64,000 nt of DNA. Source: a phage. Of the stretch, positions 42,797-53,616 are shown one piece after another (the first letter of the stretch is position 1; each line of letters begins with the position of its first letter). The stretch lies in the sequence record NC_094493.1; one strand, 5' to 3'. The notes beneath the pieces are model-generated. The model was given only the letters and a program-made list of their open reading frames with translations. It was not told the DNA's origin and ran no database searches. Made by a program: the position numbers and the translations under genes.

Positions 42797-42973
42797 ATGG
42801 AAGGTAATATGATCCCCCTGGAAAATGTAGCTATTAATGACGCTGAGGCTATCGCCCTGGTTGAAAAGGCTATGGCGGGAGCGTTGGAACATAAAGAAGA
42901 GTACGAAAAAATGATGGTTAACCTGGCAGGGGCGGCGGCTGGAGAATTCTACCCAAAAAATAATTTTAACTAA
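42797..42973 (+). CDS. hypothetical small protein (58 aa)
   Basis: ATG after GAGGAGG RBS; absent from the ORF track (under 60 aa). Confidence 0.5.
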   Translation: MEGNMIPLENVAINDAEAIALVEKAMAGALEHKEEYEKMMVNLAGAAAGEFYPKNNFN

Positions 42974-42976
42974 TGG

Positions 42977-43005
42977 TTGACAGCTCGGACAGTTCTTGTT
43001 ATTCT
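42977..43005 (+). promoter_or_regulatory. sigma70-type early promoter
   Basis: TTGACA, 17-nt spacer, TATTCT. Confidence 0.5.
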
Positions 43006-43058
43006 TATCCTCGCAAGGTGAACAACACCACACCAATTAACAGAGAGGATAAAAAATC

Positions 43059-43256
43059 ATGAACGCCTACGGAATTAAAGTACGTCGCAACACTCGCCAG
43101 GTGGTCACCAATCAAGTGATTTGCCGGGTGGATGTAACCATCAACAACGGGCAAGGCCTTTATAAATTTCGTCGCGGTCATAGCTATACCCTGCAACAGC
43201 TTAACCGTTGCGCCCTGACAAAAGGTCAGATCAACCACTGGTTTAATAAAAAATAA
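43059..43256 (+). CDS. hypothetical basic protein (65 aa)
   Basis: ATG after AGAGAGGA RBS; K/R-rich. Confidence 0.55.
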   Translation: MNAYGIKVRRNTRQVVTNQVICRVDVTINNGQGLYKFRRGHSYTLQQLNRCALTKGQINHWFNKK

Positions 43257-43258
43257 TG

Positions 43259-43287
43259 TTGACATATGGTCTGACACAAAATACACT
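43259..43287 (+). promoter_or_regulatory. sigma70-type early promoter
   Basis: TTGACA, 17-nt spacer, TACACT. Confidence 0.55.
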
Positions 43288-43319
43288 GAAATCGCAAAAG
43301 ACACTAAGAGGATAAAATC

Positions 43320-43718
43320 ATGAAAACCACTACCTTTAATTTTGATAATGCGGACTTTTCTTTTTCTGATGTCAAGAACTGCCGCCGTGATCGTGGATTT
43401 TACAAGTCTTATAATCTGGTGGGCCTGGACGATGACAATAATTTGCACGAAGTAGCTGAGATCCGGTATTATGCCGCCGCCAGTGGTAACACTCACTACT
43501 GCGTGTTTTGGATTCACGACAACAAGAACAATAAGTACGGTTATACTGGCGGCAAGGCGAGCGGTCACGGTTACGATAAAGCTAACGCAGCACTTGAGAG
43601 TGCATTAAATGCTATGGAGATCACTGCCGACGGCTGGATCTACGAAGAAGAGTTTTTGTCGGCACTTGCTGACCACCTGGGCTATAAAAAGCACATTGTG
43701 ACATGCGCCCACGAATAA
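43320..43718 (+). CDS. hypothetical protein (132 aa)
   Basis: ATG after AAGAGGA RBS. Confidence 0.6.
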   Translation: MKTTTFNFDNADFSFSDVKNCRRDRGFYKSYNLVGLDDDNNLHEVAEIRYYAAASGNTHYCVFWIHDNKNNKYGYTGGKASGHGYDKANAALESALNAMEITADGWIYEEEFLSALADHLGYKKHIVTCAHE

Positions 43719-43724
43719 AAATCA

Positions 43725-43752
43725 TTGACACGCTGCAAAATTTAAGTAAACT
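43725..43752 (+). promoter_or_regulatory. sigma70-type early promoter with 5'-UTR hairpin
   Basis: TTGACA, 16-nt spacer, TAAACT; then GGCGGGAAtgttTCCCGCC hairpin and AAAGGA RBS. Confidence 0.55.
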
Positions 43753-43800
43753 AGACACAAAAGGCGGGAATGTTTCCCGCCAGCACAAAGGAAAAAGATC

Positions 43801-44205
43801 ATGAATAAGAACGTACGCCGCATCATGAACGAACTGGCAAACGATGAAAAAATTATTGACATGCACTTAGTGAACATTTGCCGCCGTTGTGTAACCTATA
43901 ACAACCGCGCCGCAAAAGCGCGTGAGATGAACGCAAAAGGCACCTTAAAGCCCTTCCAGGTGGTGGTAAAGGCCATTAAAGATGTAGCTAATACGGCAAA
44001 CCAGGTACAGGGGAACACCAACGAGAGTACCAATATTGATCCGGCTTACATCATGAAACGGATCCGGACCTGCAAGAACAAAGAGCAAGTGTATAACGTC
44101 ATAGACTGGTTGGATTCCATGGGCGACGTGGTTTATAATAGGTTTTCTGCAGCCATTGAGATCCAGCTAGACAGGTTGGACGGGAAAGTACTAAAAACTT
44201 ATTGA
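43801..44205 (+). CDS. hypothetical protein (134 aa)
   Basis: ATG after AAAGGAAAAAG. Confidence 0.6.
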   Translation: MNKNVRRIMNELANDEKIIDMHLVNICRRCVTYNNRAAKAREMNAKGTLKPFQVVVKAIKDVANTANQVQGNTNESTNIDPAYIMKRIRTCKNKEQVYNVIDWLDSMGDVVYNRFSAAIEIQLDRLDGKVLKTY

Positions 44206-44206
44206 G

Positions 44207-44253
44207 TTTATTTTTAGATGGCCTTGACTCCAGGGCCATCGATAAAGTAAACT
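44207..44253 (+). promoter_or_regulatory. repeated palindrome-bearing promoter element, copy 1
   Basis: TTATTTTTAGATGGCCTTGACTCCAGGGCCATCGATAAAGTAAACT: GATGGCC/GGCCATC inverted repeat brackets TTGACT; TAAACT 18 nt downstream. Confidence 0.55.
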
Positions 44254-44285
44254 AATCTCAGTTAAGCGAAAAAGGGGGCTTTAAG

Positions 44286-44405
44286 ATGGGCACTACACGC
44301 CAATACACAAAGGTAACTATTATCGTCTGCGTTGTCGGTTACATCCTGGCGCAAATGTTAATGAGTAGCGCTAACAGTTTTGCAAAATTTTTCTTAAATT
44401 TTTAA
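44286..44405 (+). CDS. putative small membrane peptide (39 aa)
   Basis: ATG after AAAGGGGG RBS; hydrophobic core VTIIVCVVGYILAQ; downstream of repeat copy 1. Confidence 0.35.
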   Translation: MGTTRQYTKVTIIVCVVGYILAQMLMSSANSFAKFFLNF

Positions 44406-44433
44406 TTGACAAGCTAACTTAGATCGGTATACT
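44406..44433 (+). promoter_or_regulatory. sigma70-type early promoter with 5'-UTR hairpin
   Basis: TTGACA, 16-nt spacer, TATACT; then GGGAAAACTTCCC hairpin and AAGGAGAAAA RBS. Confidence 0.65.
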
Positions 44434-44484
44434 TAAACCCGTAAACGGGAAAACTTCCCAGAACACACAAAAGGAGAAAACACC

Positions 44485-44826
44485 ATGACCACTATGACCG
44501 CCGCAGAAAAAGCTATTCAGGTTGCCGCACTGAAAAAACAGATCGCAGACCTTGAGAACAAGATCGATACCTTTGAAATCGACGAGGACAAGTACGACGA
44601 AAACTATGATGAATGGTTAGACGAGATCTACGGCGAAATCATGATCGGAAACATTTCTTTTCTTCCGTCGCGTATCCTCAAGGAGCTAGATCCTATCGCT
44701 TACCGCTGCGGATTTAGCGACTACATCGACAGCCTGGATATTGAGGACGATGAAGAATACCAGGAATTACAGACAGAGTTAGAAGAAGCAAAAGAAGAGC
44801 TTGCGGAGCTGGAAGAAAACGAGTAA
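44485..44826 (+). CDS. hypothetical acidic coiled-coil protein (113 aa)
   Basis: ATG after AAAGGAGAAAA; E/D-rich. Confidence 0.6.
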   Translation: MTTMTAAEKAIQVAALKKQIADLENKIDTFEIDEDKYDENYDEWLDEIYGEIMIGNISFLPSRILKELDPIAYRCGFSDYIDSLDIEDDEEYQELQTELEEAKEELAELEENE

Positions 44827-44828
44827 GA

Positions 44829-44875
44829 TTATTTTTAGATGGCCTTGACTCCAGGGCCATCAATAAAGTAAACTT
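44829..44875 (+). promoter_or_regulatory. repeated palindrome-bearing promoter element, copy 2
   Basis: Near-identical to copy 1 (ATTATTTTTAGATGGCCTTGACTCCAGGGCCATCAATAAAGTAAACT). Confidence 0.55.
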
Positions 44876-44915
44876 TATACTGTTAACACTGAACTAATGC
44901 ATAGGAGTTAAAACC

Positions 44916-45161
44916 ATGGCAGCACTAATCACCAAATATTATGCCCCTACCAACACCAAAAGCGCCCGTATCATGGTAAAAGGCTTCGGACGTAAAAAGG
45001 TTTACACCTGGGATTATGCCTTAGACACGGAAGACAACTACACCAACGCGATGACAGATTTTATTAATGAGCTGAACACGCGGATCTTGACAAATTATAA
45101 AATTACCGATATTGCCTATATAGGGGAAGGCGGGATCTGTTTTGTCGGTATCGTCAAATAA
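44916..45161 (+). CDS. hypothetical protein (81 aa)
   Basis: ATG after TAGGAG RBS. Confidence 0.55.
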   Translation: MAALITKYYAPTNTKSARIMVKGFGRKKVYTWDYALDTEDNYTNAMTDFINELNTRILTNYKITDIAYIGEGGICFVGIVK

Positions 45162-45165
45162 ACTG

Positions 45166-45212
45166 TTTTTTCGGTGGTCCTGGTAGCAGGGCCATCTATA
45201 AAGATAGTTTAT
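45166..45212 (+). promoter_or_regulatory. degenerate copy of the palindrome-bearing element
   Basis: GGTGGTCCTGGTAGCAGGGCCATCTATAAAGATAGTTTATC shares the GGGCCATC(G/T)ATAAAG core. Confidence 0.35.
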
Positions 45213-45236
45213 CAATACAATGAAAGGAGAAAGTAC

Positions 45237-45590
45237 ATGATCAGCGGGGCAAGTTTTATTATTGGCGCTATTGCTACGGCTTTAATTGTAAACAAGATCC
45301 AATCTAAAAATGAAAAAGAGAGCAACGCGCTCACAGAATACCCATTTTGGGTATTCAACGACAATGAAGACTACATTATCAAGTACAAGAATGAGAAGGG
45401 CGACCAGGTAACACCGCGACCGATCCCAGCTTACAAGATGCAAGAAACACTATACCGCCTAAAGGCTGGAGGCGCAAAAATCGTAGACTTTTGGGGATAT
45501 GATTGCAAGGATCAGGAGGTTATAAAGCGCCGTATCCGGGCTATTCAGGCCAATATTGAAGTTAGCAAGGGGGGAATATATGAAGATTAA
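45237..45590 (+). CDS. hypothetical protein with N-terminal transmembrane helix
   Basis: ATG after AAAGGAGA RBS; ISGASFIIGAIATALIVN hydrophobic N-terminus. Confidence 0.55.
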   Translation: MISGASFIIGAIATALIVNKIQSKNEKESNALTEYPFWVFNDNEDYIIKYKNEKGDQVTPRPIPAYKMQETLYRLKAGGAKIVDFWGYDCKDQEVIKRRIRAIQANIEVSKGGIYED

Positions 45591-45777
45591 TTTTGAGAAG
45601 ATTGTAAAGCGATCTCATGATTCCAAAGAGCTGCCGGAACGACGCCAGCGCAACAATAAACTGAATAAGCCAAAAAGATTTGGGAAGATCTGGCGGAATC
45701 ATTATGATCGTAAATTGCCGGGCCTACTTTTGGAACGTGAACGACAGGCGGAACGATACCGCCACAAAGGCAAATAA
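45580..45777 (+). CDS. hypothetical basic protein
   Basis: ATG after AAGGGGGG; K/R-rich; overlaps upstream stop. Confidence 0.45.
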   Translation: MKINFEKIVKRSHDSKELPERRQRNNKLNKPKRFGKIWRNHYDRKLPGLLLERERQAERYRHKGK

Positions 45778-45785
45778 CAACCAAC

Positions 45786-45812
45786 GCCCCGCCATTGTGC
45801 GGGGCTTTTTTA
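45786..45812 (+). terminator. intrinsic terminator
   Basis: GCCCCGCcattgtGCGGGGC followed by TTTTTTATTT. Confidence 0.7.
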
Positions 45813-45959
45813 TTTCTATCCTACGAATAGCGCCCCTGGTTGGCCCTGTAAACGCCATAAAAGCCCCTACCTATGCAATCCCCTTTCTTAACCTGAAAAC
45901 AGCGTCTAGGGCCGTTTTATGGCGTTAAAAATGTTATTGACAGTGATTTTATTTAAAGC

Positions 45960-45988
45960 TTGACACCTTGGAATAGTCCGGATATACT
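45960..45988 (+). promoter_or_regulatory. sigma70-type early promoter
   Basis: TTGACA, 17-nt spacer, TATACT; second TTGACA 23 nt upstream. Confidence 0.65.
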
Positions 45989-46023
45989 GACCACATCAAA
46001 GCAAGAAGGAAGGAGTAAACGCC

Positions 46024-46284
46024 ATGCGTAAATTGAAAAATTTTGATAAGGTAGATGTAGTACTGAATAATTTTTACTACTGCAATAATAAAGCCGTTTG
46101 GTGGCGTGATAGTTCCACCGATAAAGTTAAGGCGCGCTTTCTCCAAGGGCACTGGCAAGGCCGTCCAGTGATTAAAATCATGGGGCAATTGGTAGCGTTT
46201 AAAAATTGCCGCCGTGTTGATGACGTTGAAGAGATTTTAAGCATTTTGCGCCACAATAATTTAAAAAATAGTGTTGACAAGTAA
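46024..46284 (+). CDS. hypothetical protein (86 aa)
   Basis: ATG after GAAGGAAGGAG RBS. Confidence 0.6.
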   Translation: MRKLKNFDKVDVVLNNFYYCNNKAVWWRDSSTDKVKARFLQGHWQGRPVIKIMGQLVAFKNCRRVDDVEEILSILRHNNLKNSVDK

Positions 46285-46301
46285 ATCTCGATAAGTATAC
46301 T
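46274..46301 (+). promoter_or_regulatory. sigma70-type early promoter with 5'-UTR hairpin
   Basis: TTGACA, 16-nt spacer, TATACT; then GGCGGGAAAACTTCCCGCC hairpin. Confidence 0.65.
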
Positions 46302-46358
46302 TAAACACACAGGCGGGAAAACTTCCCGCCACTAACAAAGAAAATAGGAGAAAATATC

Positions 46359-46982
46359 ATGACCACCGTTAACATTACCACAGGTTACAATTTATCTTTC
46401 GACGTGCTGACCGATGAACAAAAAGAAAAAGCTATTGAAATGGTCCGCGAAAGAGAAGAACACAGCGGGGATAACTTTTTTGCAGAAAGTGTAATTGAAG
46501 ACTATAAAGAACATATCTTTCCAGAGTATGGCCTTGAAGATACCAAGGTACATTGGTCCGGCTTTTGGTGCCAGGGCGACGGCGCGTCAATCAGTGCGGA
46601 AAACGTGGATTTAGAAAAATTCTTGCGTAAAGTCAAGTCTCTGACTAAATTCCGCTCAATTCGTCACTTGTTCGGCACAATGCACGATGGCGAGCTATCC
46701 GCAAGTGTTGAGCGTGATCCATATAGCCGCTATAGTCACGAAAACACTGTAAGCGGGTACATCGATACTACATGGCTAGACCTGACAGCCAAGCAAGAAA
46801 GTAAGGTTGAAGAGCTGGAAGAGCTGATCACCGAGACGGTACGGGAGCTATCCCGCAAGGTTTATGTAGACCTGGAGGAGGCCTATCTTGAACAGTTTAC
46901 TACCGAAAACCTGATCGGCCTTATTGAAGCCAATGATTGGCGGTTTAATGTGGATGAATATGGGGAGATGAGTTTTTCATAA
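46359..46982 (+). CDS. hypothetical protein (207 aa)
   Basis: ATG after ATAGGAGAAAA RBS; largest early-region ORF. Confidence 0.65.
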   Translation: MTTVNITTGYNLSFDVLTDEQKEKAIEMVREREEHSGDNFFAESVIEDYKEHIFPEYGLEDTKVHWSGFWCQGDGASISAENVDLEKFLRKVKSLTKFRSIRHLFGTMHDGELSASVERDPYSRYSHENTVSGYIDTTWLDLTAKQESKVEELEELITETVRELSRKVYVDLEEAYLEQFTTENLIGLIEANDWRFNVDEYGEMSFS

Positions 46983-46990
46983 ATAAAGTG

Positions 46991-47018
46991 TTGCAATAAT
47001 CTAAAAACCTGCTATATT
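46991..47018 (+). promoter_or_regulatory. sigma70-type early promoter with 5'-UTR hairpin
   Basis: TTGCAA, 16-nt spacer, TATATT; then GGGGCgagatgacttGCCCC hairpin. Confidence 0.55.
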
Positions 47019-47071
47019 AAAACTCAAGGGGCGAGATGACTTGCCCCACACAAAACAAAGAGGAAAACATC

Positions 47072-47452
47072 ATGAAAAACACCACCAAGGCTATTGACAC
47101 CGTTATGTTTAACCTGGTTACATTCCGTGAAGATATGAAAGATCTTCCACGTGAAACTGTGTGCGACCATATCGAAAACTATCGCAAACTAATCAAAGAG
47201 TTGCCTTTAAAACGTGACCAATATGCGGCTAACGCTATGCTTAACGCCATGATCAAAAAGATGATTCAGTGTGATTTAACTCTGGCCTATGATTATGCAG
47301 GTGGTCGTTTTGCAGTATACAATCAGCCCGTGCCTGGTATGAGCACCACCGAAGAATTGCACGCGCTCAATCTAAAACAAGATGTGTGGGATAGTATGCC
47401 CCGCGTGGTGGTATGGGTAGAAAGCGGAAAGATTTACGGCGATAATTTTTAA
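47072..47452 (+). CDS. hypothetical protein
   Basis: ATG after AAAGAGGAAAACATC; ORF-track start 47036 lies inside the 5' hairpin. Confidence 0.6.
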   Translation: MKNTTKAIDTVMFNLVTFREDMKDLPRETVCDHIENYRKLIKELPLKRDQYAANAMLNAMIKKMIQCDLTLAYDYAGGRFAVYNQPVPGMSTTEELHALNLKQDVWDSMPRVVVWVESGKIYGDNF

Positions 47453-47462
47453 TCAGGTAACA

Positions 47463-47490
47463 GGCGGCGGCATATTTGCCGCCTTATTGT
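47463..47490 (+). terminator. intrinsic terminator
   Basis: GGCGGCggcatatttGCCGCC followed by TTATTGTT. Confidence 0.55.
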
Positions 47491-47519
47491 TAATCAGAAC
47501 TGTAAAAGAGGTACATAGA

Positions 47520-47891
47520 ATGGAATTTATTATTTTGGCTATATTAGTTGCCTTGTTTAACGCCTGGATCGCTGGCAAGATGGGCAGATCCGCCTTTTTA
47601 TGGTTTATTATATCTATTTTCCTGGGAGTGGTTGCAACTATTGTATTGGTTATCCTTGCAATTGTTGACAAGGGGAATAATAGAAAGGGTAAAGTATTTT
47701 CAGACCTGTACGACGCTCAAACATTTGTCAACGCCTACTACAGCGATCTTCCAGTCTCCCTACGTTGCAGCCTTGCACAACAGGTTTTCGATGAAGCTAA
47801 AACCAGAGATCACGCCCATGAGATTTGTTTAACTGAGGCGGATCGCCTATTTGAGAGGAATAGAAAATATGTGGACCAGCCGTTTAAATAA
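47520..47891 (+). CDS. hypothetical membrane protein (two predicted TM helices)
   Basis: ATG after AAAGAGG; MEFIILAILVALFNAWIAG and FLWFIISIFLGVVATIVLVILAIV. Confidence 0.55.
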   Translation: MEFIILAILVALFNAWIAGKMGRSAFLWFIISIFLGVVATIVLVILAIVDKGNNRKGKVFSDLYDAQTFVNAYYSDLPVSLRCSLAQQVFDEAKTRDHAHEICLTEADRLFERNRKYVDQPFK

Positions 47892-48090
47892 TGCCACGTT
47901 AATTAATCCCTTTAGTGAAGATTTGAAGCCAGCCGCCTGGCGCGATGGATTCAATAACGAAAGCTTTATTTTCAGGCCTGATCTTAAGGAATTTTATAAC
48001 AATGGATCGAACAACGACAGAGATAATTTTTCTTGTAATGTGCGTGGTGATAATACTCCTGGGGGCCATTGCAAACCACGTCACTGCTAA
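47869..48090 (+). CDS. hypothetical protein
   Basis: ATG after GAGAGGAA; overlaps end of upstream gene; frame choice uncertain. Confidence 0.4.
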   Translation: MWTSRLNNATLINPFSEDLKPAAWRDGFNNESFIFRPDLKEFYNNGSNNDRDNFSCNVRGDNTPGGHCKPRHC

Positions 48091-48110
48091 CAGGAGGGAA
48101 GGGGGAGACG

Positions 48111-48230
48111 ATGACAACCAAGGATAAGCCCCGCACCGATAAGGTGCGCCGTGTTATGGTATGGCTTGAGATCATCGCCCTTGAAATATTGTTAGGCGTA
48201 GGGATGTACTTTATCGCTGTAAGTAACTGA
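48111..48230 (+). CDS. putative small membrane peptide (39 aa)
   Basis: ATG after GGGAAGGGGGAG; hydrophobic WLEIIALEILLGVGMYFIAV. Confidence 0.35.
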   Translation: MTTKDKPRTDKVRRVMVWLEIIALEILLGVGMYFIAVSN

Positions 48231-48234
48231 TAAC

Positions 48235-48265
48235 GGCCCCCAATCCCTGGGGGCTTAACTTTTTC
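48235..48265 (+). terminator. intrinsic terminator
   Basis: GGCCCCCaatccctGGGGGC followed by a T-rich run. Confidence 0.6.
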
Positions 48266-48286
48266 AAAAATTTTTCTTCCCGGGTG

Positions 48287-48315
48287 TTGCAATCCGGTCC
48301 GGAATATGGATAATA
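48287..48315 (+). promoter_or_regulatory. sigma70-type early promoter with 5'-UTR hairpin
   Basis: TTGCAA, 17-nt spacer, ATAATA; then GGGGAgcaaTCCCC hairpin. Confidence 0.5.
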
Positions 48316-48366
48316 ACAATCAACGGGGAGCAATCCCCACCACAAAGACTAGAAAGGAGAAACAAA

Positions 48367-48567
48367 ATGAGCAATAATATCCGCGTTATTAACTTCAAAA
48401 AAGAAGAAAAAATTGCCGTGCTGATTGACGGTCAAGAAATCTTTAAAGGTGATTATGAAGATCATCAAACGGCGATTAGTATCACTCGCGTGATTGGTTA
48501 CCACAATTTTTACCCTCAAGGCGCTGAGGCAGCAGTAAAACGAATTAAAGAGATTGTAGGCCTGTAA
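48367..48567 (+). CDS. hypothetical protein (66 aa)
   Basis: ATG after AAAGGAGAAACAAA. Confidence 0.6.
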   Translation: MSNNIRVINFKKEEKIAVLIDGQEIFKGDYEDHQTAISITRVIGYHNFYPQGAEAAVKRIKEIVGL

Positions 48568-48569
48568 AA

Positions 48570-48616
48570 TTTATTTTTAGATGGCCTTGACTCCAGGGCC
48601 ATCGATAAAGTAAATT
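48570..48616 (+). promoter_or_regulatory. repeated palindrome-bearing promoter element, copy 3
   Basis: TTATTTTTAGATGGCCTTGACTCCAGGGCCATCGATAAAGTAAATT, near-identical to copies at 44207 and 44829. Confidence 0.55.
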
Positions 48617-48658
48617 TAAACCCTGTTAAAATAATCAGTGCAAAAAGGAGTAATGATC

Positions 48659-48958
48659 ATGTTTATCCAGGCTAATAATCTTTATTTCTTTGATGGTCAG
48701 ATCGTAGACGGCGTGGAAGTAGAGATCACTGGGTGCCCCGGTGGTCAGGCTATGATGTTCCGTAATAATGCCTTTGATGATCCCTGTATCCTCCTGGCGA
48801 TGGAAGTTACCAAGCTGGATGATAAGAAAACGCTGATTGACTATTCTATTAAAGATCATCCTGATTATCATATGATTCATGGCGATCTGTGTATCGTTGA
48901 CCGTGACAAGGTGGGCGGCATTGTGATCGCTATTGTGAACGATGTTTTCTCTAAATAA
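48659..48958 (+). CDS. hypothetical protein
   Basis: ATG 8 nt after AGGAG; ORF-track start 48638 is GTG. Confidence 0.6.
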   Translation: MFIQANNLYFFDGQIVDGVEVEITGCPGGQAMMFRNNAFDDPCILLAMEVTKLDDKKTLIDYSIKDHPDYHMIHGDLCIVDRDKVGGIVIAIVNDVFSK

Positions 48959-49016
48959 TTCCGGCAAATGATGCAAAATAAGGCCCCTGGCAGGGCCTGC
49001 AGCGATATAATCACAT

Positions 49017-49050
49017 AAAGGCTATGCGGTTGCATGGCCTTTATTATTTT
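49017..49050 (+). terminator. intrinsic terminator (preceded by a second GC hairpin)
   Basis: AAAGGCtatgcggttgcatgGCCTTT followed by ATTATTTT; AGGCCCctggcaGGGCCT hairpin at 48981. Confidence 0.6.
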
Positions 49051-49098
49051 AGCGTTACAGCTGCCCCCAAGGCGCTTAAAAAATTTTTAAAGAAGTAC

Positions 49099-49127
49099 TT
49101 GCATCAAGTCCTACAATATGGATAATA
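49099..49127 (+). promoter_or_regulatory. sigma70-type early promoter
   Basis: TTGCAT, 17-nt spacer, ATAATA; ATATGGATAATA block shared with the 48287 promoter. Confidence 0.5.
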
Positions 49128-49187
49128 AAGGGTGTCGGGGGGCGGTGAGGCCTCCAATCATTAACCAGATAGATAGGAGTTAAAACC

Positions 49188-49472
49188 ATGGCTATTGTTA
49201 CCGTTGGCGATGTAGTAGAAATGGAAGCCAAATACTTAAAAGCGGGTATGCATATCATACGGAATGATCAAGAATTGTTATTAACCATGGTTGAATATAA
49301 TCCCGGTCAGGATTATCCTAGCGTTGACTACTTTTTCCAGTATGTTGATGAAGAATTAAAAGAGGATGAGGCTTATCAGGGTGAATTTTGTAATTTCTTT
49401 TGCCCTGATGAGGTTGTAAAAGTTATTTATCAACCTGGCGTACCTTTCCCGTTGCACGCCATCAATAAATAA
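49188..49472 (+). CDS. hypothetical protein (94 aa)
   Basis: ATG after TAGGAG RBS. Confidence 0.6.
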   Translation: MAIVTVGDVVEMEAKYLKAGMHIIRNDQELLLTMVEYNPGQDYPSVDYFFQYVDEELKEDEAYQGEFCNFFCPDEVVKVIYQPGVPFPLHAINK

Positions 49473-49534
49473 GCCTGGCGGGGCCGAAAAGGCCCCTCCT
49501 GAAATTATGAAAAAATAAAGAGGGGTAAATCATC

Positions 49535-49762
49535 ATGATTGAACAAGTTAAACGCGCCGAGGCTATTAATGGCAATGTGATCTATTTTGTCAGCAAAAAC
49601 GAAAAAGTACCATATGCGGCGGTAATAGTACAGCCTGACGGCAATTATTGGTTTACTGTATACGGATCTTATTCTTTTGGGCGTCCGGTGCATGATAGAA
49701 TTTTGAAAGTAGCGAACCCTACCGGGAAGAATATCACAGCAGAAAAATTTTTTGAAAAATAG
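49535..49762 (+). CDS. hypothetical protein (75 aa)
   Basis: ATG after AGAGGGG; preceded by CCTGGCGGGGCC motif and GGCC...GGCC hairpin. Confidence 0.55.
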   Translation: MIEQVKRAEAINGNVIYFVSKNEKVPYAAVIVQPDGNYWFTVYGSYSFGRPVHDRILKVANPTGKNITAEKFFEK

Positions 49763-49793
49763 TTGACATGACCGTATAAGACTGTAGTATATA
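49763..49793 (+). promoter_or_regulatory. sigma70-type early promoter with 5'-UTR hairpin
   Basis: TTGACA, 17-19-nt spacer, TATA-rich -10 (GTATATA); then GGGGGCaaGCCCC hairpin. Confidence 0.55.
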
Positions 49794-49838
49794 AATCAAA
49801 GGGGGCAAGCCCCACCAACCACAAAGAGGATAAAAACC

Positions 49839-50018
49839 ATGGCTATTATTGCAAAGACCGAGATTGTAGGGTTAGATTCTATTCTCCTGGCATATGAGGA
49901 AGCTATAGAAATGTATGTGGTTTCCTACGGTGAATATATCCGTGAATATAAATCTGTTGATCTAGCTTTTGAATGTTATATTCGCCAGGTCAATAAAGCA
50001 TATGATGATTATCGTTAA
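49839..50018 (+). CDS. hypothetical small protein (59 aa)
   Basis: ATG after AAAGAGGATAAAAACC; absent from the ORF track (under 60 aa). Confidence 0.5.
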   Translation: MAIIAKTEIVGLDSILLAYEEAIEMYVVSYGEYIREYKSVDLAFECYIRQVNKAYDDYR

Positions 50019-50024
50019 AATAGT

Positions 50025-50052
50025 TTGACAACAATTATAAATCGGGTAGAAT
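50025..50052 (+). promoter_or_regulatory. sigma70-type early promoter with 5'-UTR hairpin
   Basis: TTGACA, 16-nt spacer, TAGAAT; then GCGGCAatgaTGCCGC hairpin. Confidence 0.6.
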
Positions 50053-50103
50053 GTATTTCGTAGGGCGGCAATGATGCCGCTCACAACTAGAAGAGGGGTC
50101 ATC

Positions 50104-50298
50104 ATGGCGCTTAAAAAACTAACAAGCAATACTCGTTGGGATGAAATCGACGGGGAAGTTTACATTTTCGCCCGTAAACCAGGGGATCAAAAATGGTCAA
50201 AGGCTTTTACTTGCCACCCTGCAACAATAGACCTGATAAAAAGGGAAGGTCTACGTGAAGCAGTATCAAGAAGCCTACTGATCCCTTGTAAAAAATAG
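50104..50298 (+). CDS. hypothetical protein
   Basis: ATG after GAAGAGGGG; ORF-track start 50071 lies within the 5' hairpin. Confidence 0.55.
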   Translation: MALKKLTSNTRWDEIDGEVYIFARKPGDQKWSKAFTCHPATIDLIKREGLREAVSRSLLIPCKK

Positions 50299-50327
50299 TT
50301 GGACAATACGCGGTTACCTGGTAAAGT
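50299..50327 (+). promoter_or_regulatory. weak sigma70-type promoter
   Basis: TTGGAC, 17-nt spacer, TAAAGT; then GGGCG...CGCCC hairpin. Confidence 0.4.
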
Positions 50328-50379
50328 GTACGACATAGGGCGGGGCAATAAGGCAACGCCCATTAATGAGGGTGGAATC

Positions 50380-50484
50380 ATGTTAGAGAAAATTTTCACG
50401 GTTGTAGTAGTGGGCCTGGCGTTATCGGTTGGAGTAGTTGCAACTATGGCTAACATGATCCTATCTTCCCACGGTATTGGATAA
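50380..50484 (+). CDS. putative small membrane peptide (34 aa)
   Basis: ATG after GAGGGTGGA; hydrophobic FTVVVVGLALSVGVVATMANMIL. Confidence 0.35.
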   Translation: MLEKIFTVVVVGLALSVGVVATMANMILSSHGIG

Positions 50485-50494
50485 GGTGAATCAA

Positions 50495-50710
50495 ATGATC
50501 ACGAATAAAACAGGTAAAACAGAATTTTTACGCGGCTTGCAGATCGGCAAGCCTGAGATCTGGTATTGCACTAAAACACCACGTGACGAAATGAAAGATT
50601 TTACCGCCACGCTGAAGCGGGTAAAGATATCTATCACGCAGAAAAAAGCCTTGATAGTGGTTGAAGGTGAGATCCCCCAAACCGTTGTTATAGTTGAGCG
50701 TACAGCATAG
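50495..50710 (+). CDS. hypothetical protein
   Basis: ATG after AAGGTG; ORF-track start 50477 is TTG. Confidence 0.5.
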   Translation: MITNKTGKTEFLRGLQIGKPEIWYCTKTPRDEMKDFTATLKRVKISITQKKALIVVEGEIPQTVVIVERTA

Positions 50711-50798
50711 TTTAATTTATAGAGATACCTGAAAATTAACCAATAAAGCATAAACAGGCGGTAACCGCCTTAAACGTAGCAGAAAGAGGATAGACACA

Positions 50799-51083
50799 AT
50801 GAAAAAGATGATCGCAGTGGTTGCCCTGGTTGTTGGACTTAATGCGCCTGTAATGGCTAAAGAGCTGGCAAAAGAGGTTAATCTAACGGATATTCATGCC
50901 GTCAATCAAATCGGGGTTACTTATCGCTTATGCCTTGCCGCTAAAACTTTTAATGACGGCACAACAGAGTACTACGGATTCGAGGGTATCCGGTGCGGTG
51001 AGCTTGCTCGCGACCTTAAGGAAGATCCAGATCTGGAAGATCTACCCATCACCGTAAACGGTAAAGCTTACGTAAACCGTTAA
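50799..51083 (+). CDS. hypothetical secreted protein
   Basis: ATG after AAAGAGGA; signal-peptide-like N-terminus MKKMIAVVALVVGLNAPVMA. Confidence 0.6.
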   Translation: MKKMIAVVALVVGLNAPVMAKELAKEVNLTDIHAVNQIGVTYRLCLAAKTFNDGTTEYYGFEGIRCGELARDLKEDPDLEDLPITVNGKAYVNR

Positions 51084-51085
51084 CC

Positions 51086-51220
51086 ATGAGAAAGATAACC
51101 ATCACCTTGGGGATTGTGGTAGCAATACTGGCGCTCTTTCCCCTTATGGTTAGGTATGTGCTGATCAGTGTTGTCCTGATAGTCAGTGATCTATTGGAAA
51201 CGGTTGGCACCTTGTTTTAA
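51086..51220 (+). CDS. putative small membrane peptide (44 aa)
   Basis: ATG 2 nt after upstream stop; hydrophobic ITLGIVVAILALFPLMVRYVLISVVLIV; not in the ORF track. Confidence 0.3.
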   Translation: MRKITITLGIVVAILALFPLMVRYVLISVVLIVSDLLETVGTLF

Positions 51221-51233
51221 AGAGCGATAAAAA

Positions 51234-51425
51234 ATGAATATCGAACAAGTTAGAAAGGTATTAGCGGTACTGCGTTATCATAATCATAGAAAGGTCATAG
51301 ACGATCCTGATTATGTTGATTCAAGCCTGGAAGAGGATACACTACAAGCCATAAGTAACATGCAAGAATTGCTAAAGCGCATGACAGAGAAAAACCGACC
51401 GGACTACATAGGCGAAAAAATATAA
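51234..51425 (+). CDS. hypothetical protein (63 aa)
   Basis: ATG-initiated ORF followed by a terminator. Confidence 0.5.
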   Translation: MNIEQVRKVLAVLRYHNHRKVIDDPDYVDSSLEEDTLQAISNMQELLKRMTEKNRPDYIGEKI

Positions 51426-51441
51426 TATTTATAAACTACAA

Positions 51442-51469
51442 AACAGGGCTTGCAATGGTCCTGTTTTTT
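51442..51469 (+). terminator. intrinsic terminator
   Basis: ACAGGgcttgcaatggtCCTGT followed by TTTTTTG. Confidence 0.7.
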
Positions 51470-51505
51470 GTTATACTTATTCCACGGCAGGCACCTGGCG
51501 ACGGG

Positions 51506-51529
51506 GGGAGACAATCACCGGGCCTGCCT
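51506..51529. repeat. inverted copy of the 42413 motif (copy B)
   Basis: GGGAGACAATCACCGGGCCTGCCT is the reverse complement (23/24) of 42413..42436; preceded by CACCTGGCGACGGGG, which resembles the CCTGGCGGGGCC motif. Confidence 0.5.
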
Positions 51530-51553
51530 GTCATATAAGAACTATAAAAACCG

Positions 51554-51582
51554 TTGACATCTGCCATGGGGTGGGGTAACAT
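51554..51582 (+). promoter_or_regulatory. sigma70-type early promoter with 5'-UTR hairpin
   Basis: TTGACA, 17-nt spacer, TAACAT; then GGGGCaagacgtttGCCCC hairpin. Confidence 0.55.
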
Positions 51583-51640
51583 TTATCTTGAAGGGGCAAG
51601 ACGTTTGCCCCACACAACAACCAGAAGAGAGGAAAACATC

Positions 51641-51913
51641 ATGTCAAGCTGGATTAATCAAGAGGTCGAATCACGTTTTAATGCTATATGGGATCTCATC
51701 GAAAAAGAGGACGGAACATCAAGCCCTTACCTCAATAATCTTGAATTCCATTTTGTGGAAGCGATGAACGCAGAACATGATCACGAAGGTGGTGCGGACG
51801 AGTTCGCTAAAGGGTATGGCTTCAACAATGCCAACGAAATGATCGAGGCGGTTGTACTCCAGGCTGAGGAAGATTATCAATTAAAAACGCTTGAATTCTG
51901 CCGCCGTAAGTAA
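51641..51913 (+). CDS. hypothetical acidic protein
   Basis: ATG after AGAGAGGAAAACATC; ORF-track start 51554 lies within promoter/hairpin. Confidence 0.6.
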   Translation: MSSWINQEVESRFNAIWDLIEKEDGTSSPYLNNLEFHFVEAMNAEHDHEGGADEFAKGYGFNNANEMIEAVVLQAEEDYQLKTLEFCRRK

Positions 51914-51974
51914 TAAGATAATGACACGGGCCAAAAGGCCCACTAAACCAGGACCACATAAAGAGGAAAACATC

Positions 51975-52238
51975 ATGAAACGTCTTGACCAGCTCAAACT
52001 AGTTCAGTACATGGCTTACAGAATTCTTGAAGTCCAAAAAGGTAGCAAAAAAGAAGTTTGCGAGAAAGCGTACAAGATCTTTACTCGCAAAAAAGACGAT
52101 TGGATGTTACGCCAGACTAAAAAGGCTGACATCTTGGGGTACCTGGAAGAAGAGATCCGGCTTGAAGAACAAGAAGAGATCCGCCGTAGTGAGGCAGATT
52201 ATCAGGCAGCTTGGGAAAACTGGATGAGCAACAAATAA
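51975..52238 (+). CDS. hypothetical protein
   Basis: ATG after AAAGAGGAAAACATC preceded by GGGCCaaaaGGCCC hairpin; ORF-track start 51891 is TTG. Confidence 0.6.
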   Translation: MKRLDQLKLVQYMAYRILEVQKGSKKEVCEKAYKIFTRKKDDWMLRQTKKADILGYLEEEIRLEEQEEIRRSEADYQAAWENWMSNK

Positions 52239-52304
52239 TACAACAAGTTACATGGTCAGGGGCAATAAAGCCCCTTGATTACATAAAAATTATGCTATCC
52301 CTTG

Positions 52305-52333
52305 TTGACAGGGATCGGCAGTTTTGCTATATT
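52305..52333 (+). promoter_or_regulatory. sigma70-type early promoter
   Basis: TTGACA, 17-nt spacer, TATATT. Confidence 0.65.
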
Positions 52334-52382
52334 CTTTTTTGAAGGGAAGTTGTAAGAAAATTAACTAAGAGGTAAAAACACC

Positions 52383-52802
52383 ATGAACATTAAATCTGAT
52401 AATCCGGCATATAGCTTTGATAACGCTTTTTGTCACGGTCCGGCGGCGAAAGGATTCGAAATCGATGGTAAACTAGTTATTGTTAATGTTGACGGGGAAG
52501 AGGTTGCAGTATATCCGGTGGCAGACGTTAAAAGCCGTCTACAATGCCGCATGGATGTTACCGCCTATCAGCTTGATCCGGTCCGGGTAGTTGCCCTGGT
52601 CCTGGAAGAAGAAATTAAAGCAATGCACCACAGCAACAAGTTTATTGGTGACGCTCAAGATAATATGCAGGTATGCCGCTATAAAGTTAATGAAGTGCTT
52701 AAAGAGTACGGCTATAAGGATTTAATGATCAAGCGTGATGAAAAATTCCGCTACCGTAACGACCTGGCAAATCGGATTTTTGAAATATACGAATCATTAT
52801 AA
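52383..52802 (+). CDS. hypothetical protein (139 aa)
   Basis: ATG after AAGAGGTAAAAACACC; last plus-strand early gene. Confidence 0.6.
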   Translation: MNIKSDNPAYSFDNAFCHGPAAKGFEIDGKLVIVNVDGEEVAVYPVADVKSRLQCRMDVTAYQLDPVRVVALVLEEEIKAMHHSNKFIGDAQDNMQVCRYKVNEVLKEYGYKDLMIKRDEKFRYRNDLANRIFEIYESL

Positions 52803-52821
52803 TTTTTTAACTGAATTATCA

Positions 52822-52846
52822 AGGGGCTTAGGCCCCTTTCTTTTTG
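52822..52846 (+). terminator. intrinsic terminator closing the plus-strand early block
   Basis: AGGGGCttagGCCCCT followed by TTCTTTTTG. Confidence 0.7.
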
Positions 52847-53565
52847 TCTGCTCTTCCCCCTACCATAAACGGCCCTACCTGGCAAGTGGAATAATTGACG
52901 AGCCATCAATCCCACACACTGTACAAATATACATGTAAAATAGCTATTGCATAACCTTTCATTGTGTGGTAGCAGGGCTATTTTTACCCGTTTTCCCTTC
53001 CAAAATTGCACGTAATGCCGCTATTGCACAAATTTTAACCTGATGCACATCTCCAATATCTTGTCAACAACTAAAAATCTTTATAAGTCATACACTTACA
53101 CAACATAGAAAGCGTGTCCTACGCGAAAAATCGAGTATAACTATAGCCGCCAGATCTCAGAATTCACGTACGCACGCCATTCTATAGCCTGCAAAGTATT
53201 TATTCCAACCACAGAATAACGGAATAGTCAATACCTGCATAAAATAATTATTCGTGTAAACTGCATAACATAAATCAGCTCAGGTGTCAACATTTTTCGT
53301 AAACAGTCCGAAATTATCACGATGAGTTATCATAAACAGAGAAATCTTTAGTCGTCTAATGTTTACTGTACATTACTATACTGACTGGAATCATTAGATG
53401 ACTAAGAGAAAGATAAGAAATAATTAATAATGTGATTATTTTACCTGTAACAATAAGGCAACTATGCAAACGAATGGCATGGCGCGACGGAGTCGCGACA
53501 TAATATAAAAGCAGTAACCATCACCCCCGTGATAGTTTGTCTGCAATCTATTAATCAGATCATAG

Positions 53566-53616
53566 TTGCCTTGTATTTAGTTAATCATGACATAACAAGC
53601 AAGGCAACTATAGATC
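53566..53616. repeat. long palindrome in the non-coding convergent zone
   Basis: CATAGTTGCCTTG...CAAGGCAACTATAG inverted repeat (13-bp arms, about 26-nt loop); AAGGCAACTATG also at 53455 and TAGTTGCCCTG at 53624. Confidence 0.5.

Follow-up and report, generated by a model that had tools for sequence, protein, structure and literature searches.

The window, a 64,000-nucleotide stretch of sequence record NC_094493.1, comes from an rV5-like coliphage of the Vequintavirinae, and its positions 42977-52846 are the hyperplastic early region of that phage. Two scans of this block for TTGACA/TTGCAA and TAnnnT hexamers at 16-17 nt spacing found 14 intergenic sigma70 promoters scoring at least 9/12 (42977, 43259, 43725, 44406, 45960, 46274, 46991, 48287, 49763, 50025, 50300, 51450, 51554 and 52305), all immediately 5′ of + strand genes, as well as weaker candidates at 49099 and 51891. 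About 15 intergenic candidates precede small genes, bearing out an earlier sequence-only reading that had described at least 13 near-consensus sigma70 promoters with 16-17-nt spacing, placed almost gene by gene. On the + strand, 11 sites reach at least 10/12 with at least 5/6 in the −35 hexamer, compared with 1.2±1.1 (maximum 4) in 200 dinucleotide shuffles of the block; the same scan of the − strand of 42977-52846 returned no site at or above 10/12. One of the 11, the intragenic site 46043, is probably spurious.

The promoters belong to self-contained cassettes of 75-90 bp which occupy the gaps between small genes. An AT-rich stretch abutting the upstream stop codon leads into a near-consensus sigma70 promoter and a 9-11 nt A/T-rich start region carrying a pyrimidine-purine step. 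There follow a GC-rich hairpin of 4-9 bp, with GG at its start in every case, an unstructured A/C-rich spacer free of T-runs, a strong Shine-Dalgarno (SD) sequence and the ATG. Between hairpin and SD, the spacer consists of 59% A, 23% C, 9% G and 9% T, and 6-9 nt separate the ATG from the SD motifs, which are of the AAGAGGA/AGGAG type; the sequence-only reading had described an ACACAAA-type spacer and a ribosome-binding site behind the hairpin. The cassettes with a hairpin are as follows.

43725-43800, + strand: cassette P43725; TTGACA-16-TAAACT, 10-nt gap, hairpin 43763-43781 (GGCGGGAATGTTTCCCGCC, −13.1 kcal/mol), A/C-rich spacer, SD; ATG 43801; 35 bits with model R1
44406-44484, + strand: cassette P44406; TTGACA-16-TATACT, degenerate weak hairpins 44438-44449 and 44447-44459 (about −4.5 kcal/mol); ATG 44485; R1 19.7 bits
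46274-46358, + strand: cassette P46274; TTGACA-16-TATACT, 10-nt gap, hairpin 46312-46330 (GGCGGGAAAACTTCCCGCC); ATG 46359; R1 33.7 bits
46991-47071, + strand: cassette P46991; TTGCAA-16-TATATT, 9-nt gap, hairpin 47028-47047 (GGGGCGAGATGACTTGCCCC); ATG 47072
48287-48366, + strand: cassette P48287; TTGCAA-16-GATAAT, 10-nt gap, hairpin 48325-48338 (GGGGAGCAATCCCC); ATG 48367; about 30 nt past terminator 48235-48255
49099-49187, + strand: cassette P49099, with weak −35; TTGCAT-16-GATAAT, 11-nt gap, hairpin 49138-49155; ATG 49188
49763-49838, + strand: cassette P49763; TTGACA-16-TAGTAT, 10-nt gap, hairpin 49801-49813 (GGGGGCAAGCCCC); ATG 49839; R1 21 bits
50025-50103, + strand: cassette P50025; TTGACA-16-TAGAAT, 10-nt gap, hairpin 50063-50082 (GGGCGGCAATGATGCCGCTC); ATG 50104; R1 65 bits
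50300-50379, + strand: cassette P50300; TGGACA-16-TAAAGT, 10-nt gap, hairpin 50338-50361; ATG 50380; R1 44 bits
51554-51640, + strand: cassette P51554; TTGACA-17-TAACAT, 10-nt gap, hairpin 51593-51611 (GGGGCAAGACGTTTGCCCC); ATG 51641
51891-51974, + strand: weak candidate P51891, within the end of the upstream gene; TTGAAT-17-TAAGAT, 8-nt gap, hairpin 51928-51941 (GGGCCAAAAGGCCC); ATG 51975

The other promoters of the block have a weak hairpin, none, or an unusually long one.

42977-43058, + strand: promoter P42977; TTGACA-17-TATTCT, weak 4-bp hairpin 43017-43029 (−3.0 kcal/mol); ATG 43059
43259-43319, + strand: promoter P43259; TTGACA-17-TACACT, no hairpin; ATG 43320
45960-46023, + strand: promoter P45960; TTGACA-17-TATACT, no hairpin; ATG 46024
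51450-51553, + strand: promoter P51450; TTGCAA-16-TATACT inside terminator 51440-51467, then 8 nt and a 43-nt hairpin 51486-51528
52305-52382, + strand: promoter P52305; TTGACA-17-TATATT, no hairpin; ATG 52383

Since no convincing ORF lies between P51450 and P51554, the P51450 transcript might represent a leader or a small RNA. Compared with relatives, the −35 hexamers have diverged by 1.2% and the −10 hexamers by 2.7%, versus 7.5% in the promoter spacer between them, making the hexamers 3-6 times more conserved. The cassettes are real, modular units under selection; the sequence-only reading had described a modular transcription unit for many small genes.

A stable compact hairpin (ΔG ≤ −6 kcal/mol) begins 10-11 nt past the last −10 base at nine of the 15 promoters of the block (43763, 46312, 47028, 48325, 49138, 49801, 50063, 50338 and 51593), and this phasing is non-random (binomial P≈5e-9, taking as background how densely hairpins occur within the block). 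Three or four more hairpins are weak or atypical, including the one at 51928 behind a weak promoter and the 43-nt hairpin behind P51450. The four hairpins quoted earlier were located as written at 46312, 47028, 48325 and 49801; the accompanying figure of 11 promoters with hairpins stands for the nine stable ones, but reaches 11 only with the weak structures at 43017 and 44438/44447. Several promoters of this phage that are just as strong (43259, 45960, 52305 and 40404, the last being the strongest of the window at 12/12) have no hairpin, so the hairpin is not essential for early expression; outside the block, the strong promoters of the window do without it. Across nine related loci, nearly all hairpins found 3-19 nt from a strong −10 start at 9-11 nt, and phased hairpins accompany 17 of the 22 Schickermooser promoters and 11 of the 20 phi92 promoters. 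The same cassette, more stereotyped, recurs throughout the early regions of phi92-like phages (Stephanstirmvirinae), where the cassettes are very alike and the fixed spacing could be partly due to common descent. In the window, the gap sequences of the cassettes are mutually unrelated, yet the spacing is constant at 9-11 nt.

The closest described relatives of the cassettes are the promoter-early stem-loops (PeSLs) of the T4-like phages RB49/phi1, PST/T4 and nt-1/KVP40 (Arbiol 2010, PMC2839356; Comeau 2014, PMC4122927). In both, a near-consensus sigma70 promoter with AT-rich DNA upstream is combined with a GC-rich stem-loop, SD and start codon. Both are repeated among the small ORFans of a hyperplastic early region, and both mark the junctions where close relatives differ by an insertion, deletion or replacement. 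The cassettes differ in lineage (Vequintavirinae and Stephanstirmvirinae, not Straboviridae) and in the position of the stem-loop, which is always 9-11 nt 3′ of the −10 and hence within the cassette's own transcript. In RB49 it is mostly between −35 and −10 or overlaps the −10, with one of the 15 found lying downstream, while in PST and nt-1 it is 5′ of the promoter (PMC4122927). The element of the window that resembles the RB49 layout is a second, different palindromic repeat, with TTGACT in the palindrome loop, which four other genes carry instead of a hairpin cassette.

44217-44253, + strand: second element, copy 1; palindrome GATGGCC-TTGACTCCAG-GGCCATC, then NATAAAGTAAAC; 5′ of ATG 44286
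44838-44874, + strand: second element, copy 2
45173-45209, + strand: second element, variant copy; GGTGGTCCTG-GTAG-CAGGGCCATC, then TATAAAGATAG; no TTGAC hexamer
48580-48616, + strand: second element, copy 4

Terminators are also found in the block.

45786-45815, + strand: canonical intrinsic terminator; GC stem, then TTTTTTATTT
47462-47494, + strand: terminator-like hairpin with T-rich tail
48235-48265, + strand: terminator-like hairpin with T-rich tail, immediately 5′ of P48287
49015-49054, + strand: terminator-like hairpin with T-rich tail, 5′ of P49099
51440-51477, + strand: terminator-like hairpin with T-rich tail, 5′ of P51554
52821-52848, + strand: terminator at the end of the block

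Given these six canonical T-tract terminators, the block is a series of nested units, not one read-through mRNA. The cassette hairpins share with rho-independent terminators a GC-rich stem of 5-9 bp and a short loop, their stems equal those of the real terminators in stability, and they are annotated as rho-independent terminators in GenBank entries for relatives (vB_EcoM_ASO2A and Schickermooser, for example), phi92-like phages included. However, they lack a U-tract (0.8 T per 10 nt past the stem, versus 6.5 in the six real terminators and 2.5 expected) and stand between promoter and gene instead of behind a gene, while true T-tract terminators occur separately in the same block. By sequence they are not terminators, and the terminator role proposed for PeSLs fits them poorly for want of a T-tract. 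A related proposal is a PeSL-type attenuator, in which transcription reaching the hairpins from cassettes further 5′ would be partly terminated or paused there, so that each gene would depend chiefly on its own promoter and expression would not pile up along the block. In RB49, a GC-rich PeSL stem-loop (G-run, loop, C-run) lowered downstream lacZ expression as strongly as rrnB T1 (PMC2839356), and by analogy some attenuation by the cassette hairpins may occur. Attenuation as their explanation is nonetheless unlikely: besides the missing U-tract, an efficient terminator 10 nt past a consensus promoter would abort that promoter's own transcripts and silence its own gene, a second terminator would be redundant at the three cassettes that directly follow a canonical one (within about 120 nt), and a terminator needs no fixed 10-nt distance to the −10, the RB49 stem-loop being variable in position.

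Comparison with relatives indicates that structure, not sequence, is the conserved feature. The hairpin is kept in 34 of 34 orthologous variants, which still fold despite indels, whole-stem swaps and hypervariable loops, which diverge by 33% and evolve faster than any other part of the cassette. Among 38 phi92-type copies, compensatory changes are frequent at two of eight stem pairs (for example, GC to CG in 11 copies), with a covariation score higher than in any of 500 shuffles or any slid register. Template-switch repair of quasi-palindromes can likewise keep stems perfect, with no need for RNA selection. The same variation bears on a protein-binding RNA site, either a nut/boxB-like loading site for an antiterminator or a translational repressor operator on many early mRNAs. 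Small hairpins shortly 3′ of early promoters, some with A-rich loops (GGGCCAAAAGGCCC at 51928; GGGGCCGAAAAGGCCCC at 49479), recall lambda boxB, and genes such as 47520-48230, which lack their own promoter, need terminators to be read through. This role is extremely improbable, as the loops are unconstrained and both loops and stems differ between cassettes, leaving no common recognition surface, the hairpins come one per gene and not, like nut sites, one per operon, and an Rfam search of the block was negative; nor was a boxA-like partner noticed on unsystematic inspection.

A pyrimidine occupies position −4 before the stem in 34 of 52 cases and a purine position −3 in 39 of 52. This step fits the Y−1/R+1 start rule, with the predicted start at position 8 after the −10, and promoter geometry together with the conserved dinucleotide predicts about 3 unpaired 5′ nucleotides (range 2-4). 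Folding of the 5′ UTRs retains the hairpin in 10 of 11 cases and leaves the SD mostly unpaired. Near-consensus sigma70 promoters are prone to slow escape, and a hairpin that folds on emergence of the nascent RNA from the exit channel might act co-transcriptionally, limiting backtracking or sigma-dependent promoter-proximal pausing and speeding the clearance of very strong promoters. The fixed distance to the −10 and the pairing of hairpins with such escape-slow promoters would suit this role, which is nevertheless very unlikely: the stem folds only with polymerase near +30 or beyond, after escape, the 12/12 promoter at 40404 does without it, and the initial transcribed region holds no −10-like pause element.

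The best reading, with a probability of about 0.5 as the whole explanation, is that the near-terminal hairpin caps and protects the mRNA 5′ end, a role the sequence-only reading had put forward and which is partly supported. The fixed distance to the promoter, the kept folding and the absence of a T-tract are as such a function would predict. E. coli mRNAs are stabilized by 5′ stem-loops, as RppH and RNase E require single-stranded 5′ ends (PMC3997798); examples are the 5′-terminal stem-loops of the ompA and papA 5′ UTRs (Emory 1992 and Bouvet 1992, as cited in PMC3997798). In these, as in the cassettes, a short stable hairpin lies at the 5′ end or close to it, ahead of an unstructured leader and SD, and their dependence on structure over sequence matches the sequence turnover and kept folding of the cassettes. 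The T7 gene 10 leader has a 5′ stem-loop of the same stabilizing sort. Unlike ompA and papA, which are single and experimentally mapped, the cassettes are repeated gene by gene with a predicted 5′ end, whose 2-4 nt overhang may be long enough to make protection incomplete: RppH and RNase E require two or more unpaired 5′ nucleotides and prefer at least three (PMC8833179). With about 3 nt predicted, the overhang is borderline for these enzymes, so protection may be partial, or weak unless the start is closer to the stem.

In the proposed mechanism, unmodified host RNA polymerase would read the cassette promoters and start about 8 nt past the −10, leaving 2-4 free nucleotides and then at once the hairpin, which would hinder RppH and 5′-end-dependent RNase E attack and so stabilize the mRNA. 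The hairpin would also insulate the leader, keeping it in a defined fold with the SD open regardless of the following gene. Read-through from upstream would pass the cassette hairpins, since the six T-tract terminators elsewhere do the stopping. The phage encodes a Srd-like protein, with gp11 as its rV5 counterpart (PMC3606486), and T4 Srd is described as stimulating RNase E against host mRNA (PMC4980113, citing Qi 2015). No start-site, half-life or 3′-end data for Vequintavirinae or Stephanstirmvirinae phages were found in the searchable literature.

The cassettes lie at recombination junctions, as PeSLs do: of 22 homology breakpoints, 17 coincide with intergenic cassettes or lie no more than 3 nt from one, and the subfamilies differ by permutations of their gene order. 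At 50016-50034, within AAAATAGTTTGACAACAA, the −35 of P50025 is the site of a crossover that joins rV5-like DNA on the left to phi92-like DNA on the right, and phage Mangalyan has both cassettes of this junction in tandem. Mangalyan also carries a cassette insertion with its junction at 51953-51969 (window coordinates), in the SD region of the P51891 cassette, and a P51554-type stem at the P46991 site, a hairpin swap between cassettes. The hairpin might then be a DNA-level inverted repeat for cassette recombination or mobility (a cruciform, or the target of a phage nuclease or recombinase), placed beside promoters by common descent. The junctions, permuted order, hairpin swap and hypervariable loops would agree with this, as would the mini-circles that RB49 PeSLs form via exchange between flanking copies (PMC2839356). 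Such a role is decidedly unlikely, given that the best-resolved crossovers lie outside the stem, in the −35/UP and SD regions, where they fit ordinary homologous exchange between conserved patches, and that unrelated gap sequences hold the 9-11 nt spacing. Alongside 5′-end protection by the hairpin, the promoter and SD parts, being near-identical among cassettes, probably also serve as short homology patches at which gene cassettes are exchanged, inserted and deleted, both within the rV5-like phages and with phi92-like phages.

The early block of this rV5-like coliphage (window positions 42977-52846, plus strand) carries a repeated promoter-hairpin feature that is real, highly non-random and conserved across two phage subfamilies. 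Each copy of this cassette, named here by its promoter position (P50025, for instance), consists of a sigma70 promoter, a GC hairpin, an A/C-rich spacer, a Shine-Dalgarno sequence (SD) and an ATG. The sequence-only reading had counted at least 13 promoters, rightly so: scans find 14 sigma70-type sites with 16-17 nt spacers, all of them intergenic and each directed into the next gene.

Promoters, post-promoter hairpins and terminators of the early block
42977, 43259, 43725, 44406, 45960, 46274, 46991, plus strand: promoters confirmed by consensus and our own scans
48287, 49763, 50025, 50300, 51450, 51554, 52305, plus strand: promoters confirmed by consensus and our own scans
49099, 51891, plus strand: weaker promoter candidates
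43763, 46312, 47028, 48325, 49138, 49801, 50063, 50338, 51593, plus strand: the nine stable compact hairpins after promoters
45786, 47462, 48235, 49015, 51440, 52821, plus strand: canonical terminators

At a stringent threshold, the plus strand of the block contains 11 promoter sites against 1.2±1.1 in 200 dinucleotide shuffles, and the minus strand contains none. The nine hairpins, which fold with −6 to −13.6 kcal/mol and each begin with GG, start 10-11 nt past the last −10 base (binomial P ~5e-9, the null being the block's own density of such hairpins). Together, shuffles and binomial test rule out a chance origin of the promoters and of the hairpin phasing. Eleven hairpins had been claimed from the sequence, a generous count whose extras are weak or atypical; nine are solid. 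Only weak stems are present at two further promoters (43017 and 44438/44447), hairpin 51928 sits behind a weak promoter, and the hairpin is absent behind three strong promoters (43259, 45960 and 52305).

Within the 64-kb window the cassette is confined to this block, the other strong promoters lacking a hairpin, with one or two possible exceptions on the minus strand at 61.1-61.7 kb. These promoters of the other early arm (61105-61173 and ~61620-61661) are followed after 7-8 nt by the hairpins AAGAGGGTTTGGTTCCCTCTT and GATTCCAGAGTGAAGCATTACTGGAATT, and the site at 61105-61173 scores 20.9 bits with the cassette model; both may be more diverged cassettes outside the block. Another atypical arrangement is found at P51450 (TTGCAA-16-TATACT), which is embedded in the terminator at 51440-51467 and followed by a 43-nt hairpin (51486-51528) contained in a 77-nt fold (51484-51560; −25 kcal/mol, z=−2.5). 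The plus strand at 51450-51553 has no convincing ORF ahead of the next promoter and may represent a small RNA or a long leader.

At the upstream edge of the cassette, the preceding stop codon directly adjoins, or lies very close to, an AT-rich stretch (78% A+T in the 20 nt before the −35, against 58% in the block), with the −35 next. The 9-11 nt between the −10 and the stem are A/T-rich. Among 52 non-redundant copies, taken from the window and from relatives, they contain a pyrimidine 4 nt before the stem in 34 and a purine 3 nt before it in 39. This Y-R step agrees with the Y−1/R+1 context favoured for transcription starts, at position 8 past the −10, and about three nucleotides would then be unpaired at the 5' end. 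GG opens the stem in 47-49 of the 52 copies, and A follows it in 44. The A/C spacer and ribosome-binding site described earlier are indeed seen: the segment between hairpin and SD is 59% A, 23% C, 9% G and 9% T, and an SD of the AAGAGGA/AGGAG type plus the start codon close the cassette at its 3' end. When the predicted 5' UTRs are folded with 30 nt of coding sequence, the hairpin is retained in 10 of 11 and the SD is mostly unpaired. In the minimum free energy fold of the P50025 leader (50063-50115, plus strand), the 5' hairpin sequence does not form the local stem but is paired to the SD/AUG region (GGGGUCAUCAUGGCGC), an alternative pairing that could control translation of gene 50104.

Hairpins of this kind are labelled as intrinsic (Rho-independent) terminators in GenBank records of relatives, which list a promoter, then a rho-independent terminator, then the gene. 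The annotated terminators are WebGeSTer, TransTermHP or ARNold predictions, and the following lie 10 nt past an annotated promoter and immediately ahead of the gene (coordinates within the fetched loci).

Annotated rho-independent terminators behind promoters in relatives
vB_EcoM_ASO2A (L012): 102-167, 1178-1248, 2501-2570
Schickermooser (L003): 3010-3028, 7779-7795

The missing U-tract and the position both argue against the terminator explanation. The 10 nt after the stem contain on average 0.8 T in 11 post-promoter hairpins versus 6.5 in the six canonical terminators and 2.5 expected from composition. True terminators are positioned upstream of promoters, and the cassette hairpin stands between a promoter and the gene served by it, not at the end of a transcription unit. 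At P48287, P49099 and P51554 a second terminator would be purposeless because a true one closely precedes each, and a terminator 10 nt past a consensus promoter would abort that promoter's own RNA. Termination of antisense transcription is likewise rejected: some stems, read on the minus strand, are followed by T-rich runs, since these are the complement of the A-rich start region, and a usable minus-strand T tract occurs in only ~3/9 stems. The annotated terminators at these positions are cassette hairpins mislabelled by terminator predictors. Termination is very unlikely to be the hairpins' main role, and operon predictions are misled by the public records of a large phage group.

Matches to the 9.9-kb region, at 90-96% identity, come from 253 phage records, almost all of rV5-like coliphages (Vequintavirus), including A51.2, Mangalyan, rV5_ev isolates and JES2013. 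In 42797-52802, 29 small plus-strand ORFs of 34-207 aa are called, each with an SD, and the relatives' annotation of the block's products is always hypothetical or small membrane protein. Its counterpart in rV5 is the end of the transcription unit spanning genes 238 to 164, on a map where the stretch that follows is termed non-coding; a consensus search in the same paper gave 33 promoters and 20 terminators, with no mention of a promoter-hairpin unit (PMC3606486). The 'non-coding' box is recognizable in the window as a gap of ~2.7 kb (~52850-55600) between convergent plus and minus gene blocks, without convincing ORFs and annotated only with tiny ORFs in relatives. A CCTGGC(G/A)GGGCC motif occurs five times in intergenic plus-strand positions of the early block (42615, 42683, 42697, 48986 and 49474).

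Its kin CAGGGCC forms the 3' arm of a second, palindromic repeated element. This element lies in intergenic DNA at 44217-44253, 44838-44874, 45173-45209 and 48580-48616 (plus strand), serving four genes that have no promoter-hairpin cassette. It consists of a T-rich run, the palindrome GATGGCC-TTGACTCCAG-GGCCATC (−16 kcal/mol) and NATAAAG(T/A)A. The arms do not vary among the rV5-like relatives examined. The TTGACT within the loop does (TTTACT, TTGATT), and the third copy lacks it; the element is not found in phi92-like loci. A terminator is rejected because the T-run precedes the stem. The element may be a PeSL-like promoter with its hairpin over the −35 (PeSLs being the promoter-early stem-loops of T4-like phages), an operator, or a phage-specific (middle/late-like, ATAAAG) promoter.

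Conservation of the cassette was followed in orthologous regions of the Vequintavirus isolates Mangalyan, naam, JohannBauhin (Bas53), Aya and rV5_ev147, plus typing phage 4 (a partial genome).

Divergence of cassette parts from the window
−35 hexamer: 1.2%
spacer between hexamers: 7.5%
−10 hexamer: 2.7%
gap between −10 and hairpin: 10.9%
stem: 9.5%
loop: 32.9%
post-hairpin spacer: 14%
SD region: 6.5%
first 60 nt of coding sequence: 5%

By this distribution, the promoters are under purifying selection and the loops are free or mutation-prone. A hairpin is kept at the same place in 34/34 distinct orthologous variants from 11 sites, through loop changes, indels and replacement of whole stems. For instance, the P46991 site of Mangalyan carries the stem found at P51554 in the window, and its P50300 site has a GGCGGGAA-type stem.

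A far more stereotyped form of the cassette is found in phi92 and Schickermooser (both Stephanstirmvirinae) and in ZYD (filed under Vequintavirus in its record). It reads TTGACA-N16-TAnnnT-GTATCACATA, followed by GGGCGGCAAT…GCCGCTC or GGCGGGAA…TTCCCGCC, then an A-rich spacer, AGAGA and ATG. The cassette is present at 11/20 strong promoters of phi92, 17/22 of Schickermooser and 11/26 of ZYD, with a −10-to-hairpin gap of almost always 9-11 nt. RNAalifold predicts no structure on a MAFFT alignment of 38 phi92-type cassettes because the 3' arms are misaligned, and the structure was supplied by hand for pair counting and a covariance model. The specified stem is paired in 84% of cells versus 39-65% for slid registers, and compensatory GC-to-CG and GC-to-AU changes occur at two stem positions. 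Built from phi92-type copies only, the covariance model recovers P50025 (65 bits), P50300 (44 bits), P43725 (35 bits), P46274 (34 bits), P49763 (21 bits), P44406 (20 bits) and P51554 (17 bits) in the window. An IMG/VR pattern scan with TTGACA…GGCGGGAA…TTCCCGCC returns only 2 contigs and is little informative on distribution. A known RNA family is rejected, a scan of the whole window at Rfam gathering thresholds giving only a group I intron elsewhere. This catalytic intron is full length (33197-33432, plus strand; RF00028, 64.7 bits, E=4e-14) and begins just before the end of the 809-aa ORF 30783-33212, which is therefore probably an intron-interrupted gene.

When the block is locally aligned with each relative, most alignments stop at cassettes: of 22 distinct homology breakpoints, 17 lie inside intergenic DNA or no more than 3 nt from it, although such DNA makes up only about a quarter of the block. 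The clearest junction is at P50025: the sequence is rV5-like up to AAAATAGTTTGACAACAA (50016-50034, the −35), and to the right it matches ZYD/Schickermooser at 89-93% identity through 50708, with the return to rV5-like sequence at 50438. Mangalyan has the two alternative cassettes one after the other, each with a promoter copy in front of it, the configuration expected before or after exchange between flanking cassettes. A Mangalyan-specific insertion is bounded by a 17-nt repeat in the SD region (51953-51969), and further junctions are found at 48971 and 49812/49827. Phi92-type phages have homologues of genes 49535, 49839 and 50104 in another order, with the homology beginning at the ATG or directly behind the hairpin.

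Among described elements the PeSLs come closest. They combine a sigma70 promoter with a GC stem-loop, an SD and an AT-rich part upstream, recur in hyperplastic regions and have been implicated in modular shuffling and mini-circle formation (PMC2839356, PMC4122927). Six PeSL features recur in the cassettes: a near-consensus sigma70 early promoter in intergenic space; an AT-rich stretch upstream of it; an adjacent stable GC-rich stem-loop (G-run, loop, C-run); an SD and start codon at the 3' end; repetition, concentrated in a hyperplastic region of small ORFans; and indel or replacement junctions between close relatives. Hairpin position is the one that differs: PeSL stem-loops vary in place and mostly lie within the promoter or ahead of it, and in essentially all cassettes the hairpin starts 9-11 nt past the −10. 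In the hyperplastic region of RB49, scanned with the script used for the window, 13 of 15 hairpins near strong promoters start inside the promoter (in the −35/−10 spacer or around the −10), one lies upstream, and only one is found past the −10, at 9 nt. The stem-loops of PST and nt-1 precede the promoter (PMC4122927). By its position, the hairpin of rV5-like and phi92-like phages would uniquely be part of the cassette's own transcript, strictly phased to the predicted start site. A terminator or attenuator role, as proposed for PeSLs, is possible; the absence of a T-tract argues against intrinsic termination.

Sites of the lambda nut/boxB type are a poor match: they have a conserved loop to which an antiterminator protein binds, and in the cassettes the loop is the most variable part and differs from one to the next. 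RNase III sites are rejected on stem length: RNase III needs a stem of roughly 20 bp, and these have 4-9 bp. In E. coli, 5' stem-loops stabilise mRNAs, since a single-stranded 5' end is required by both RppH and RNase E (PMC3997798). Stabilising stem-loops of the ompA type depend on structure, not sequence, which the cassettes match by an evolutionary proxy, the folding of every orthologous variant. The ompA-type hairpin is at most a few nt from the 5' end, and the cassette stem has a predicted 3-nt overhang. The cassette is a variant of PeSL cassettes and 5' stabilising stem-loops, not a separate class. The literature searched on rV5-, phi92-, phAPEC8- and PVP-SE1-type phages yielded neither transcription start site mapping nor an earlier description of it.

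The best-supported reading is a modular early expression cassette whose hairpin would form the 5' end of the mRNA, protecting and insulating it, and whose conserved parts would act as crossover points. Strict phasing to the −10 is what a 5'-end function predicts; a role at the DNA level or an effect on promoter clearance is also possible. For 5'-end protection, the ~3 free nucleotides predicted are a quantitative caveat, as RppH and RNase E need at least two and prefer at least three (PMC8833179). A plausible context for mRNA protection is offered by an Srd-like protein. ORF 14602-15645 (minus strand), which adjoins divergent promoters at ~15639/15653, matches the PHROG families 'Srd anti-sigma factor' (E=7e-9) and 'decoy of host sigma70' (E=6e-14) as well as one labelled HNH endonuclease (E=2.5e-110). 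Its rV5 homologue, gp11, is likewise described as Srd-like/sigma70 decoy (PMC3606486). In T4, Srd stimulates the action of RNase E on host mRNA (PMC4980113).

These findings extend promoter/stem-loop cassettes beyond T4-like phages, and the predicted location of the hairpin within the cassette's own transcript points to mRNA 5'-end protection or insulation. They also provide base-resolved examples of gene-cassette exchange at promoter sequences between two subfamilies used in phage therapy collections. For engineering, nature supplies in these cassettes compact and probably insulated units for expression in E. coli. A bolder, tentative proposal, given about one chance in four, is that rV5-like and phi92-like phages share a mobile cassette with two functions: its phased 5' hairpin would let early mRNA resist 5'-end-dependent decay, which the phage may accelerate for host mRNA via the Srd-like protein, and its promoter and SD patches would serve as crossover points for ORFans within and between the two subfamilies. 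If true, large virulent coliphages would share PeSL-like elements as a general principle of their design, and mRNA protection would be a second function built into these elements.
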